A DNA stretch of 63,733 nt from Dysosmobacter sp. (GCA_045659825.1 JAZRCP010000102.1:1-63733), one strand, 5' to 3'. Counted from the stretch's first letter, positions 39,477 through 52,104 are shown. Made by a program: numbers and translations. Notes: generated by a model not told the origin, from the letters alone.

Positions 39477-39565
39477 GGAGACGTATCGAAGTGGTCGCAA
39501 CGAGCTTGACTCGAAATCAAGTTGTCCGCAAGGGCACGTGGGTTCGAATCCCACCGTCTCCGCCA
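39477..39565 (+). tRNA. tRNA-Ser(CGA), intact, island-borne
   Basis: 89 nt, long variable arm, loop CTCGAAA, GGTTCGAATCC, GCCA; terminator 39567-39602. Confidence 0.94.
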
Positions 39566-48026: not shown

Positions 48027-48662
48027 TCGTAAATGTCATCTGGAAGGATCGATGTATTAGATTATTTGATTAAAAATGCCCAGATAGTGTATGGCACCGA
48101 TGCGCCTGCTTATCATGCATGTCTTCTTCAATACTTTGCTGAATAATTACTTGATAGAGCACCGAAAGAGCGCCGTTACATTGTAGCGGCGCTCTTTTTT
48201 AATAGACGATATAATTCAGAGCGCCATAGAGTGCCACGAATCGAAGGGGCGGTACTTACTATGAATCTGGAAGCAACAACAGCACCGTATGTTGATGTGA
48301 GGTTAGATCGAATTAAAGTGGTTTTACAGACTTACCATGATGAGATCCTGCCGGAGCACCAGCCTGAAACACAAAAGAAGCAGAGTTGTAAGAAAAATGA
48401 ACAGGTGAAGTAGTCTTTACTTTTTAGGGTGGGAGAATTACATTGTATTTAGGATGCTTACAGTAGATTTGGCGGATGTGTATCAAGTGCGCAGATGATT
48501 CTGTGCAGTAAAATTGCAGTAAAGCTTCAAGAAATGAAGTAATAAGACGTTGCACCAGGTTTTAAGGGGAAACGCGGAAAATCTTGATATTACAGGGATT
48601 GATGGAGAAAAGATAGAAAGCGATTTAAGAAAATAATAGCCAAAAATCTCATCTGCATCGTT

Positions 48663-48721
48663 CTCGAAATGCGGTAGGCGTGTCGAAGCGCGCGGGGGTT
48701 CAAATCCCTCCATCTCCGCCA
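48663..48721 (+). pseudogene. 3' half of native tRNA-Ser(CGA) (right junction)
   Basis: CTCGAAATGCGG, variable arm, GGTTCAAATCC, CATCTCCGCCA, then terminator 48724-48753. Confidence 0.9.
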
Positions 48722-48928
48722 ATGCGCCGCAGGTACTGCCTGCGGTATTTTTTGCTGCCGATCTCGTTGACATTGTGCTGCGGGAAAGGTACGATATATT
48801 TAATAAAACTCTCTGTCCGAGATAAGTATTGGTGTGCATAACTGACCTTTTTATTCATTTTTTATGAATGCCCAATAAAAAGGAGCAAGGTATATTTCAA
48901 CCTTGCTCCTATGGGATATATGCTATTC

Positions 48929-49208
48929 AGTTCAACAAATTCAAGTTTGTCGAACTCTATTATTCTTTCTCAGCCAACATTCTAATGCTTGCGGGGTTGT
49001 CAATGTAAGTTTCAGTATATCCGCACTCAGGACATACAGCACATTTGATTTTTCCCAAGGAGCCTTTGAACATTCCATTTTCTCTAACTTCTATACCATA
49101 ACCACCTCTGGTGACCATAACAGCCAAATCTTCAACCATTGTGGTTTCACACCTTAAACATTTTCTCATACAATCACACTCCTTTGTCAAATTCAAGTTT
49201 GTCTTACT
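48929..49208. repeat. Two directly repeated dif-like sites flanking one passenger gene
   Basis: CAAATTCAAGTTTGTC exact at 48936-48951 and 49188-49203; first copy lies in AGTTCAACAAA-TTCAAG-TTTGTCGAACT. Confidence 0.8.
48960..49169 (-). CDS. Small zinc-ribbon protein, 69 aa (passenger)
   Basis: CLRC..CPECGYTE; leader ACAAAGGAGTGTGATTGT-ATG. Confidence 0.85.
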   Translation of the reverse strand: MRKCLRCETTMVEDLAVMVTRGGYGIEVRENGMFKGSLGKIKCAVCPECGYTETYIDNPASIRMLAEKE

Positions 49209-49491
49209 TGCTCTTTGCTTTCACTGCTGCAATAAGATTTAGAATAACGGTAATGAAAACCAATGCAACAGAGGCAATCAAGACCGCACGAATAGTGTCC
49301 TCAATAGCAGCATAATCACCGAGAAGAACTCGTCTGTTTATCTCAAGCAGTTGAAATACAAGAGAAATTGCACATAGGCTGAAACTTGCCAAGGTATTTT
49401 TATGAGATGTCAATGCTTTTGGGGGTGTGATTGCTAAGCCTCCAAACAACCATGCACAAACACCCAAAATAAGACTTCCTATATTCAACAT
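49204..49491 (-). CDS. Small 3-TM membrane protein (passenger)
   Basis: Hydrophobic helices; leader ACAAAGGGGTGTGATTGT-ATG. Confidence 0.85.
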   Translation of the reverse strand: MLNIGSLILGVCAWLFGGLAITPPKALTSHKNTLASFSLCAISLVFQLLEINRRVLLGDYAAIEDTIRAVLIASVALVFITVILNLIAAVKAKSK

Positions 49492-49564
49492 ACAATCACA
49501 CCCCTTTGTTTCATTAGAATTTGCTCTGTTTCATTTCTGGTGAAACAAAGCAAGTAAAGTACAC

Positions 49565-49828
49565 TTATTTGGTCTTGTCTTTCTTTATCAAGGCTCTAAT
49601 ACCGTCAATCGCCAATCCATAACCTATCATCGTAACGATACTCAAAATGTGCCAAAGGTAAGGAACGGAATTGATAGCATTACAAGCCTCGGAACTGCTC
49701 AAAAGATTAAGAATAGGGTTGAAACCTATGAAAAGGTTAATATCGTCAATTCCAACCAAGTTCAGAACAATACCAATGACACCAACAACAGCAAACCAAA
49801 ATGTAAAGGATTTGAGTATTCTTCTCAT
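49565..49828 (-). CDS. Small membrane protein (passenger)
   Basis: Hydrophobic helices; leader ACAAAGGAGTGATTGT-ATG. Confidence 0.85.
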   Translation of the reverse strand: MRRILKSFTFWFAVVGVIGIVLNLVGIDDINLFIGFNPILNLLSSSEACNAINSVPYLWHILSIVTMIGYGLAIDGIRALIKKDKTK

Positions 49829-49961
49829 ACAATCACTCCTTTGTCATTATCTATATAGACGGAAGAAATCGGTAAAAAGTTCCTAAATACACCTATATCA
49901 TAGCATACGCCTATACTTTTGTCTCACTCCAGAGCGGAGAATTTACAAATTCACAACATTT

Positions 49962-50908
49962 TCAGATTGCTAACCTCTTCATATCAAAGGAAATAGGCTT
50001 GTACTTGAACTTGGCAAGCGGTATCTTCTTCGCCTGATTGGATAACAGCGTGATAATGTCATAGGCTTGTTCAAGATACCTCTCTTTTTCTTCTGTTGCT
50101 CGTGTATGGTCTTCAAGACCTGAATGATTTTCTCTGTCTCCATACTATTGATTGCATTAGAAAATCTCTCTTGTGACCTTAAATCCCCAAGTTCAACATA
50201 GTTCAGCAACTCAGCCTTGCTCTGTTCTTCATTTTTAATGTACTTATGCAAGAAATCTATGTCAAATCCTTGGTTCTCGACATATTCGATTTTCTTCTCA
50301 TAACTCAAATGGGTATATGGCATTCTGCCAAGTGTACCCAAGAAGAACATAGGGTCTTTTATATCCTTGAAAGACAGAGGATAGTAATACTCGTCACTCT
50401 CTGCCAAACTCTTGAAATCGTCCTGATTGCTGACAAGCTGATGGAGGACGGAACACACCCTATGTCTGTTGTGGAGTGCTGTCTGCTTATTGATACCGAG
50501 TTCTTTTGCTATGGTACGGCAACTCTCACCTTGTAAGGTCAACTTGATAAACTCAATCCATTTACCAACAGACAATTTGGAGCGAAAGGCAACTGTACCG
50601 TTGGTATCTCCGAATGTCTTTTCGCAACCCTTGCACAGATATCTCTGTCTGCCTTTGCTCGTTCCATACTTGATAACCTTAACAGAGCCACAATGAGGGC
50701 AGACAACAGTATCCAAATCCTTATCATTGGCATAACTTCTACGCTCTCTGCAACATTGGAAGAATACCTTTTCTTCTTTGGTCAGTTGAGGTCTTGCACT
50801 TCTTCTTGTTTGCAAAGCGGTTACTAACGCTTGGATTTGTTCGTCTGTTAAGTCAGCCACAGCGATTTGTTTTTGTATATCGTTGAAATTGGAATTGAAA
50901 TCAGCCAT
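49962..50908 (-). pseudogene. IS1595-family transposase with internal deletion of the catalytic core
   Basis: Zn ribbon CPHC..CKGC, HTH, ESDEYY, KKKRG, then frame jump to a C-terminal remnant (DIITLLS..KRLAI*). Confidence 0.85.
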
Positions 50909-51060
50909 AAAAATATCCCCCTACAAAAATTGTTTTTGTAAGGGAACATAATTATTTCTGTCAGCAAAAAACTCATTTATGCATAATCATCTATGAAAAT
51001 GTATAATTTTTGTTCACCAATATTTATCTCGGACAGAGAGTAATAAAAAGGAGTGGTGCT

Positions 51061-52104
51061 ATGAAACTGTTGTGGCAGCCGGGGCAGATCGGCCCCATGG
51101 AAGTGAAAAACCGGGTGGTGCGTTCCGCTACCAATGAGCATCTCTCTGAGCCCAACGGCGATTTTACCCAGGCGTGGGTCGATACGCAGGTGGAGCTGGC
51201 AAAGCAGGAAGTGGGTCTCGTGATCACGGGCCACGTCTGCGTGGACCGTACCCAGCGGGCCGATGAGGGCCAGCCGGTGTTGGATCGCACCACAGACACG
51301 GCTTTCCTGCGGCAGGCGGCGGAGGGCGTCCACGCCCATGGCGGCAAAATCGTCATGCAGCTGAGCCACAGCGGCGCGAAAGCTATGGAGGCGGTCAACG
51401 GCCGTCCGGCCAAGGGACCTGCGGATTTTACCGTGGAGGAACTGGCGCAGCTGACCGAGGACTTTGTCTACGCAGCCAAATGCTGTAAGGACTGCGGCTT
51501 TGACGGCGTGCAGATCCACAATGCCCACGGCTACCTGCTTTCCGGTTTCCTCCATCCGGAGGAGAATGTCCGGACAGATACCTACGGCGGCAGCCTAAAA
51601 AACCGGTTCCGCTTGCCCAGTGAGATTATCCGTGCCGTGCGGGCGACCTGCGGCGAAGATTTCGCGATCCTTGTGAAAATGAACTGTAACGGCTGCGGTG
51701 ATCTGCCCGCTGTGCTGCGGCTGTATGAGGAAAGCGGCGTGGACGGCATCGAGGTCAGCGGCGTGGATTTTGCTGCGAAGGCCGGTGTGAAAGAGCCGTT
51801 CTATCTGGAGCAGCTGCTGACCGCCAAGGAGGGTATCCGCACGCCGCTGATTCTGGTGGGCGGTATGTTCTCCGGTGAGAGCGCGGAGCAGGTGCTGGAA
51901 AGCGGCATCGATTTTGTGTCGTTCAGCCGTGCCCTGATCTGTCAACCGGATTTCATTGCCCGCCTGAAGCGGGAAGAGCAGGCGGAAAGCGCCTGCCTTG
52001 CCTGCAACGGCTGTTACCGCGTGTACCGTCAGCGGCCAGTTCGCTGCGTGCAGCATACGGAGCCGATCCTTCAGTTGGAGAAAGTCTTTTTCTCCCACGG
52101 ATAA
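51061..52104 (+). CDS. NADH:flavin oxidoreductase (Old Yellow Enzyme family)
   Basis: KNRVVRSAT, GFDGVQIHNAHGYLLS, RTDTYGGSLKNR, CLACNGC. Confidence 0.92.
   Translation: MKLLWQPGQIGPMEVKNRVVRSATNEHLSEPNGDFTQAWVDTQVELAKQEVGLVITGHVCVDRTQRADEGQPVLDRTTDTAFLRQAAEGVHAHGGKIVMQLSHSGAKAMEAVNGRPAKGPADFTVEELAQLTEDFVYAAKCCKDCGFDGVQIHNAHGYLLSGFLHPEENVRTDTYGGSLKNRFRLPSEIIRAVRATCGEDFAILVKMNCNGCGDLPAVLRLYEESGVDGIEVSGVDFAAKAGVKEPFYLEQLLTAKEGIRTPLILVGGMFSGESAEQVLESGIDFVSFSRALICQPDFIARLKREEQAESACLACNGCYRVYRQRPVRCVQHTEPILQLEKVFFSHG

Follow-up and report, generated by a model that had tools for sequence, protein, structure and literature searches.

Exchangeable single-gene cassettes in an IS1595-family slot of Clostridia, with a TvrR-clade hsdS-shuffling recombinase as candidate enzyme

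Results

An IS1595-family element with three small cargo genes

We analysed a stretch of 63,733 nucleotides from Dysosmobacter sp. (GCA_045659825.1, JAZRCP010000102.1:1-63733), hereafter the window, in which an IS1595-family element occupies positions 48809-51040 and is bordered on either side by an 8-bp target duplication, TAATAAAA (left copy 48801-48808, right copy 51041-51048). Its 26-bp terminal inverted repeats lie at the cargo end (48809-48834, plus strand), where relatives have an identical end, and at the transposase end (51015-51040, minus strand). The transposase gene (49962-50908, minus strand), identified by a profile match, is no longer intact, about 370 nt being missing internally near 50075 with a change of frame; it passes PF12760, and its DNA is 83-87% identical to that of an intact relative (L002), whose transposase passes NF033547 (99 bits; cut-off 75). 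The DDE transposase, the terminal inverted repeats of about 25 bp and the 8-bp target duplication agree with the values given for the IS1595 family, namely inverted repeats of about 25 bp and an 8-bp duplication (PMC5704250, in part).

A promoter-like sequence, GAGACA-17-TG-TATGAT (49897-49925, minus strand; a consensus match only), is directed toward the cargo slot, at the end of which stands a predicted intrinsic terminator (48881-48910, minus strand) that is kept behind other cargo genes. The slot holds three ORFs, all on the minus strand: gene A (49565-49828), encoding a hydrophobic protein of 87 aa with 96 database matches, itself included; gene B (49204-49491), encoding a hydrophobic protein of 95 aa; and gene C (48960-49169), encoding a zinc-ribbon protein of 69 aa that matches PF09855 below the cut-off. 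A 21-letter leader pattern is exact in B and C (0.00 occurrences expected by chance), the leader of A (49829-49856, minus strand) is 2 nt shorter, and the 11-letter leader core occurs five times in the 1.55-Mb genome, three of these in the slot. The three small co-oriented genes and their near-identical leaders thus lie where a preliminary description of this DNA had placed them. Relatives of gene A among 220 genomes of the class were limited to three distant matches, two of them at contig ends, with unclear flanks; we also searched for near-identical A or B cassettes elsewhere and for viral relatives of gene B, and found none.

Comparison with other copies of the element showed that their first (left) site has been deleted from the leader of A, the window lacking 25 nt between two TGA triplets relative to L041. 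Since its transposase is broken and its first site deleted, the window copy is probably a partly frozen record of the system.

Several other features accompany the element. The same genome has additional copies or ends of the IS family as well as more cassette-type sites (G000:C22:17-1578, C95:45-1660, the end of C84, C10:2268-2622, C64:270-350 and C93:1061). Just left of the IS, a tRNA-Ser-like 3′ remnant (48660-48722) is 83% identical over 36 nt to the tRNA-Ser at 39477-39565, and the lower-GC block between the two, which may be an older island, contains larA-like, glycerate kinase-like and sugar-diacid regulator-like genes. Metagenome contigs from two runs (X3 and X4; window 48700-51150) join the IS ends and skip 949-2174 nt, and so represent non-autonomous, MITE-like derivatives, one of which, 1191 nt in length, has space for a cassette.

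Recombination sites in the window copy

Gene C is the only one of the three genes with good sites on both sides. The distal site (48929-48956, minus strand; 26.6 bits as a left site) is a hybrid of the left and right types defined below, with two strong arms around the left-type centre CTTGAA, and the B/C site (49181-49208, minus strand; 23.7 bits as a left site) has the same left-type centre and extends into the ribosome-binding site of C. The two share an exact 16-bp direct repeat (48936 and 49188, spacing 252) that is beyond chance, since none of 300 Markov resamplings of the element contained an exact repeat of 16 bp or more, the longest being 14. The distal site is an 11-6-11 palindrome in which 10 of 11 arm positions pair, which taken alone is only modestly unusual (12 of 300 resamplings attain 10/11). 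The preliminary description had reported this repeat bracketing the last gene, the 28-bp palindrome and a single shared terminator 3′ of the distal site (48910-48881), and we recovered all three. Its degenerate site before the middle gene did not hold up as a full site: the sequence reaches 3.7 bits, where right sites have a median of 25, and belongs to another conserved motif, TGTTTCA-N7-TGAAACA-N13-TGAAACA (49503-49547, minus strand), which includes a weak right-type core. This second junction motif, recognized by sequence conservation, was found in 1 of 300 other genomes and in one metagenome contig, and it may be an operator or another site type. Copies also stand before small genes at L113:3944 and at L246:10222 and 11189, and the gene pair 5′ of the motif in these two loci resembles BlaI/BlaR1.

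Judged by its sites, the 252-bp gene C unit, with identical direct sites and equal centres, is the sole unit predicted to excise as a circle; contigs of other samples, from runs that each contained at most 14% of the element's words, included no 252-bp circle joint. Sites with two strong arms, as in the distal site, were present in 6 of 300 other genomes of the class, one of the six probably by chance. A separate idea, that a hairpin at the B/C junction sequesters the ribosome-binding site, was rejected because the junction does not fold (z 0.23).

Cargo is exchanged at the sites in relatives

Scanning GTDB species genomes with the intact transposase yielded 40 IS loci, of which we dropped two whose contigs end in the transposase (L042 and L057) and three distant matches (L068-L070), leaving 35 with readable cargo. 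The usual order of the slot is promoter-like sequence, left site, ribosome-binding site, gene, right site, terminator and inverted repeat. Left sites have the strong arm GTTMGACAAA and a centre that ends in GAA, right sites have the centre TTCCAA and the strong arm TTTGTYGAAC, and a single consensus, CAAA-TTCCAA-TTTGTCGAAC, describes both in opposite orientations, the strong arm being the outer one. The centre TTCCAA is found in 16 of 18 distinct right junctions and left centres are mainly TAAGAA or CTTGAA.

Downstream of the same promoter, the 35 copies carry 22 distinct first genes, and five of them (L031, L032, L033, L037 and L056) carry five different genes despite transposase tails that are 95-100% identical. 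In the window's own genome, a related element (C95) carries a single, different gene with a left-like site on one side and a right-like site on the other. Where two copies have their upstream backbone in common (16 pairs), per-position identity stays at 69-100% across arm and centre and falls to 12% five bases past the centre; where the downstream backbone is the common part (16 pairs), identity climbs from 12-50% to 75-100% at the AAA preceding the centre, the pairs not being mutually independent. Identity between the downstream backbone of the window copy and those of L050 and L064 begins no earlier than the fifth base of the centre, and the sole difference between L043 and L066 is the first three bases of the left centre; these comparisons point to crossovers at either edge of the centre.

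Cassettes also recur in different surroundings, as shown by a cassette catalogue built on a preset list of centres, which biases its own centre counts. One is at least 88% identical at the DNA level between an IS slot (L193) and a non-IS slot (L087), and another is found in three contexts (L148, L151 and L152). Relatives of gene B lie downstream of relatives of gene C (71-81% identity) in L113 and L239, the order in the window being B-C, and in four independent animal-gut metagenome runs many contigs match only positions 49162-49200, that is, the B/C site and leader, and are unlike the window on both sides. None of the 35 IS copies was empty, and no excision was seen at the read level in sequencing runs that each contained at most 14% of the element's words.

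Our confidence that this is some form of cassette system with sites as its borders is very high. With 22 cargos in 35 copies and breakpoints at the sites, the comparison bears out the preliminary description's proposal of exchangeable cassettes bounded by CAAA-N6-TTTG sites, with one promoter and one terminator, between IS1595 ends; the variation in gene number and order with breakpoints at the site, which it had named beforehand as a check, was found, the cargo is not a fixed block, and the window element has no recombinase in cis, in line with the enzyme in trans that it had proposed. The direct-repeat unit that it had described is not the usual one, which has two inversely oriented sites with different 6-bp centres.

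Distribution, arrays and cargo classes

Of 351 order-level genomes, 54 contain an exact match to the right-site pattern (2 for the reversed control), and of 271 genomes of the class, 16 contain a similar one (0 for the reversed control); these counts mix cassettes and R-M loci, since of ten order-level matches with the centre TCCCGA, eight fall in hsdS. Among 15 right sites that were new in the class-level scan, and thus out of sample, 10 lie behind a stop codon, compared with 449 of 3000 random positions. A left site lies at most 70 nt from the start in 4 of 10 out-of-sample genes, compared with 3 of 18 control starts in the same loci, and three further genes, which represent one cassette, have a left site about 110 nt upstream.

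Among 57 cargo proteins, Pfam identified six acetyltransferases, four methyltransferases and two GrpB proteins, together with NUDIX, RibD_C, formyltransferase, HTH and other families; 31 had no Pfam match, and none of the cargo is related to hsdS. An IS variant whose cassette encodes an XRE-family HTH protein is near-identical across many MAGs assigned to different genera (L043-L049, L052, L060, L063, L422, L428 and L429), a recurrence that is a sign of recent spread or of binning artefacts.

Cassette platforms comprise the IS, tandem IMEs (L204) and chromosomes. In L111, six genes form an array whose junctions include single right-type ones and one of about 41 bp in which a right and a left site stand back to back; internal array junctions span 12-20 bp. 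Other loci show variations on this layout. In L204 (G098:C32), three IMEs with near-identical integrases stand in tandem, and behind both the first and the second lies a promoter and left site, with a different cassette in each case. Arrays of at least five cassettes with lineage-specific arm variants are found in L210 (G282:C21) and L440 (G734:C28), and in L210 every cassette has its own repeated promoter module between right and left site. L107 and L005 (G197:C14) have a 23-bp gene-less unit, consisting of a ribosome-binding site only and lying between two right-type cores, before the IS terminator.

Viral contigs had no match for the left site plus leader, the internal junction or the second motif, and scanning them for the full palindrome turned up 19 stretches, most of them attributable to chance and not one adjoining a recombinase. 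Plasmids searched with cassette DNA gave no full match. Upstream of the lnu(C) gene of the IS1595-family transposon MTnSag1 (L411:2350-2930, NZ_CP072508.1) lies a left-type match of 10.6 bits, and downstream of the gene a right-type match of 9.1 bits, both with p 0.002 against local shuffles and both just under the weakest training sites (12.5 and 11.5). No site match was found for lnu(P) and six control genes, and two of nine other plasmid genes had a match, on one side only. By these matches, which are suggestive, lnu(C) may be a former cassette.

A candidate enzyme among hsdS-associated recombinases

A recombinase beside the cassette sites was absent in 235 of 237 loci, the two exceptions being the IME integrase of L204 and a distant enzyme with another site (L233), and the tyrosine-recombinase loci recovered from 15 site-bearing genomes yielded no dedicated recombinase. 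We found a candidate in L436, where a 330-aa recombinase lies amid hsdS fragments with three directly repeated sites, one of them 4 nt 3′ of its stop codon. This enzyme is 65% identical to a recombinase between hsdS genes on CP016746, a record whose invertase is assigned to clade 2, the TvrR clade (PMC7672463 Table S5, in part). TvrR shuffles hsdS segments by excising circles at direct repeats and reintegrating them (PMC6265443, in part), and loci that have no invertase of their own are possibly served in trans (PMC7672463, in part).

Sites of at least 13 bits lie near 10 of 25 members of the hsdS-associated family (32 sites in 128 kb), compared with 10 of 129 other recombinase loci (12 sites in 474 kb), a tenfold higher density per base. 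As the other 15 members have no matching site, only a subfamily fits; seven members with a site behind the stop codon fall in a group of eight (quick tree, SH-aLRT 87; 0 of 500 label shuffles were as clustered). The site consensus is encoded in conserved hsdS codons (DK-SK-F and K-SR-FIE). When hsdS sites were chosen by protein motif, their correlation with the cassette outer arms, unshifted, was 0.89 for right and 0.75 for left sites (p 0.0002), the right-arm value being partly circular in that most right-type hsdS sites were first reached via the DNA pattern, and left-type hsdS sites and 23 viral loci having been selected independently of it. In addition, the back-to-back junction of L111 resembles the hsdS codons FVEQ.DKSK, and the arm of the L210 array, TTTGTCGGTCTG, is identical to the arm upstream of the recombinase in L436, L448 and L449. 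The hsdS centres, TCCCGA and TCAAAA, differ from the window centre CTTGAA. Neither a family member nor a matching hsdS was found in the genome of the window (76% complete), nor was the family found in five genomes with arrays or the IS, where the best matches were 26-32%. The best match for the cassette sites is thus with the sites of TvrR-clade hsdS-shuffling recombinases, in place of the Xer/dif or IntI type that the preliminary description had favoured.

Two further observations concern tyrosine recombinases in these genomes. In L436, L448, L449 and L452, the recombinase gene and an hsdS tail lie between an inverted left and right site, in the same format as a cassette. A common family of 280-aa tyrosine recombinases (L309, L313, L373, L378, L400 and L406) is followed by its own palindrome, of the type CCACATAA-N6-TTATGTGG, which is unrelated to the cassette site.

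The host Xer-like gene and a putative dif site

The genome of the window has one full tyrosine recombinase, which is Xer-like (G000:C84, about 332-1384) and is single-copy in 58 of 60 genomes of the order. A conserved 11-6-11 palindrome, ATTNNRCAAAA-N6-TTTTGYNNAAT, lies upstream of the Xer-like gene or within a few kb (L247-L301, L327 and L328; about 205-234 of C84 in the window's own genome) and was detected in 32 of 57 loci, two of which had been picked by pattern, compared with 0-1 in shuffles. In two closed chromosomes the perfect palindrome occurs once, at 51% of the record. From sequence and position, the host palindrome and the single Xer form a candidate dif system of Clostridia, in a layout like that of xerS-difSL, a single recombinase gene with a nearby site (PMC1914069, in part).

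The cassette sites do not match this putative host dif, a different, single-copy palindrome near the host Xer gene. The inner arm is CAAAA in the host palindrome and ACAAA in the cassette site, and the correlation between the two arms is 0.37-0.40 unshifted and 0.55-0.68 after a 1-bp shift. Some centres, such as TAAGAA, are common to both. Host arms differ among genomes, and cassette arms do not track them (G641 and G645). We also considered the cassette palindrome itself as host dif and rejected it: it is not single-copy in the closed genome G008 (5 matches at 3 mismatches; control 5), and class-wide it was present in only 7 of 301 genomes, once inside a coding region.

Discussion

Taken together, these results lead us to an explanation to which we assign a probability of roughly 65%: the element contains a variable IS1595 slot with 11-6-11 borders, whose cassettes are cut in and out by a TvrR-clade recombinase encoded elsewhere, in type I R-M loci. 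The enzyme would belong to the KSRF-type clade-2 subfamily, be present only when the host has such an R-M locus, and act in trans on the cassette sites. Units such as gene C, whose direct sites have equal centres, would leave the slot as circles and reintegrate, the behaviour published for TvrR, and a unit between inverted left and right sites would be replaced via two crossovers (left with left and right with right), as proposed for dif modules, for which such a replacement has been modelled (PMC13141974, in part). Left and right sites agree in two bases at the 3′ edge of the centre, and rarer crossovers between them at that edge would produce the hybrid junctions seen in arrays and the distal site of the window. 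The IS would contribute promoter, terminator and mobility.

A broader scenario, which we advance tentatively and regard as somewhat less than an even bet, is that a general form of gene capture in gut Clostridia may have arisen from R-M phase variation. In that case, hsdS sites would have become cassette borders, TvrR-clade enzymes would load and shuffle the cassettes in trans with IS1595 elements and IMEs as platforms, and lnu(C) of MTnSag1 would have reached streptococci and enterococci as a cassette.

Several other explanations deserve consideration. If the sites descend from hsdS repeats and are served by a separate, dedicated recombinase that has so far gone unsampled, possibly at a rare integron-like master locus, this would account for our failure to find the hsdS-type enzyme in the array-bearing genomes examined, for the drift of cassette centres from hsdS centres, and for site variants that differ by lineage (L210 and L440). 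We consider this unlikely, as no such enzyme adjoins the sites in 235 of 237 loci and the L210 arm is the same as that upstream of the recombinase in L436, L448 and L449. Slightly less probable still is that these are dif-module sites worked by the single chromosomal Xer of the host, as pdif sites are by XerC/D in Acinetobacter. An enzyme that is single-copy in 58 of 60 genomes of the order and present in the window's own genome would explain activity everywhere; its conserved palindrome resembles the cassette arm after a 1-bp shift and has centres in common with it, and dif modules have the same inverted left/right layout (PMC13141974, in part). Against this stand the inner five bases, CAAAA rather than ACAAA, which XerH reads base-specifically in each arm (PMC5241119, in part) and which lead us to rank the host enzyme as a rival only, together with cassette arms that do not follow the variable host arms, the better, unshifted fit of hsdS sites, and a cassette palindrome that is not single-copy in closed G008.

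That the motif is merely a repressor operator was the reading that the preliminary description had named as fatal to its own; in a fuller form, a portable promoter/operator leader would be bound by a repressor, and genes would be swapped by homologous or illegitimate recombination in the common leader and trailer. Left sites do lie between the -10 box and the ribosome-binding site, and the leader through the ATG is common to many genes, so that it is partly a translation signal. However, right sites are placed between stop codon and terminator, a position at which an operator would have no effect, the same consensus is found inside hsdS coding repeats and behind a recombinase gene, and common blocks of 10-20 bp with a constrained 6-bp centre are a better fit to a crossover region than to the gap of an operator; we regard this explanation as improbable. 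We give least credence, and very little, to an integron-type system with folded, single-stranded attC-like sites and an IntI-like enzyme. It would suit the single promoter, the promoterless single-gene units, the arrays and the cargo rich in acetyltransferases and methyltransferases, and the hybrid junctions fit a single strand exchange; moreover, the core site of integrons is GTTRRRY, with which the GTTAGAC in the cassette arm is compatible. But the B/C junction does not fold, internal junctions are only 12-20 bp, the candidate enzyme scores 84 bits against a cut-off of 265 for integron integrases, and no intI was found near the sites. The TvrR-clade explanation remains our preferred one.

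Integrons and the dif modules of Acinetobacter are known to capture single genes site-specifically. Clostridia dominate the gut, and we found no description of such cassettes, nor anything comparable, for Clostridia in the literature searched, whose coverage left out most subscription journals; the cassette system, which is real, widespread and has a named candidate enzyme, is thus apparently undescribed. It is common (54 of 351 order genomes, a few of them via hsdS alone) and rides on elements of an IS family with resistance genes already among its passengers. Should the proposed enzyme prove correct, a recombinase whose only known role is to switch methylation specificity would also serve in gene capture; this would link phage defence to the flow of accessory genes and would attach a named enzyme and a 28-bp site to the process. 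The site consensus permits cassettes to be called from sequence alone, and the analysis also yields, as a by-product, a candidate site for chromosome dimer resolution in Clostridia, next to a single Xer gene.

Comparison with known systems

The cassette system has features in common with several characterized systems and differs from each. XerS/difSL and XerH/difH also have A-rich inner arms about a 6-bp centre, and it is the host Xer gene and its palindrome that show their layout (PMC1914069, PMC5357621 and PMC5241119, each in part); those are single chromosomal sites, whereas the cassette site is multicopy and differs from the host palindrome in its inner five bases. MTnSag1 (tISSag10, with lnu(C)) and tISCpe8 (with lnu(P)) likewise have an IS1595 transposase, inverted repeats of about 25 bp, an 8-bp duplication and a passenger downstream (PMC5704250, in part), but their transposase is only about 30% identical to that of the window type, whose passengers are exchanged at defined sites.

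Like integrons, the system has promoterless cassettes of an ORF plus ribosome-binding site, arrays behind a promoter, similar cargo classes and carriage by transposons; the common promoter is recognized here by consensus match only, and L210 has promoters between its cassettes. Unlike integrons, the cassettes have neither intI nor a long folded attC, and each unit has two site types in inverted orientation. The resemblance to Acinetobacter dif modules (pdif) lies in inversely oriented 11-6-11 sites with conserved centres around genes (PMC13141974 and PMC12907356, in part), in left centres that are alike and right centres that are alike among exchanged modules, in an enzyme acting in trans, as we infer here, and in fusion units between direct sites, as the same sources describe in part. 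The cassette sites differ in that they do not match the host dif and show no strict C/D alternation, single junctions being found in either orientation, L111 having runs of right-type junctions and the window two consecutive left-type sites; the cassettes also have one common promoter and terminator, reside in Gram-positive hosts, and are probably served by one recombinase and not by XerC and XerD.

The pneumococcal tvr locus (SpnIV, TvrR) and the clade-2 hsdS invertases differ in their published substrates, which are hsdS segments in cis. Here, unrelated single genes lie behind a promoter, far from an R-M locus, in IS elements, IMEs and chromosomes in which the enzyme is absent in cis; the cargo is unrelated to hsdS as a type I R-M substrate, and no hsdS match was found in the window's own genome (76% complete). 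What the systems share is the presence of the cassette consensus at such loci and, probably, the clade of the tyrosine recombinase as judged by sequence (65% identity to that of CP016746). Sites equal to the repeats in hsdS and beside the recombinase were found for one subfamily (10 of 25 loci), and for these systems short repeats inside hsdS, with excision of circles between direct repeats followed by reintegration, have been published (PMC6265443 and PMC7672463, in part).
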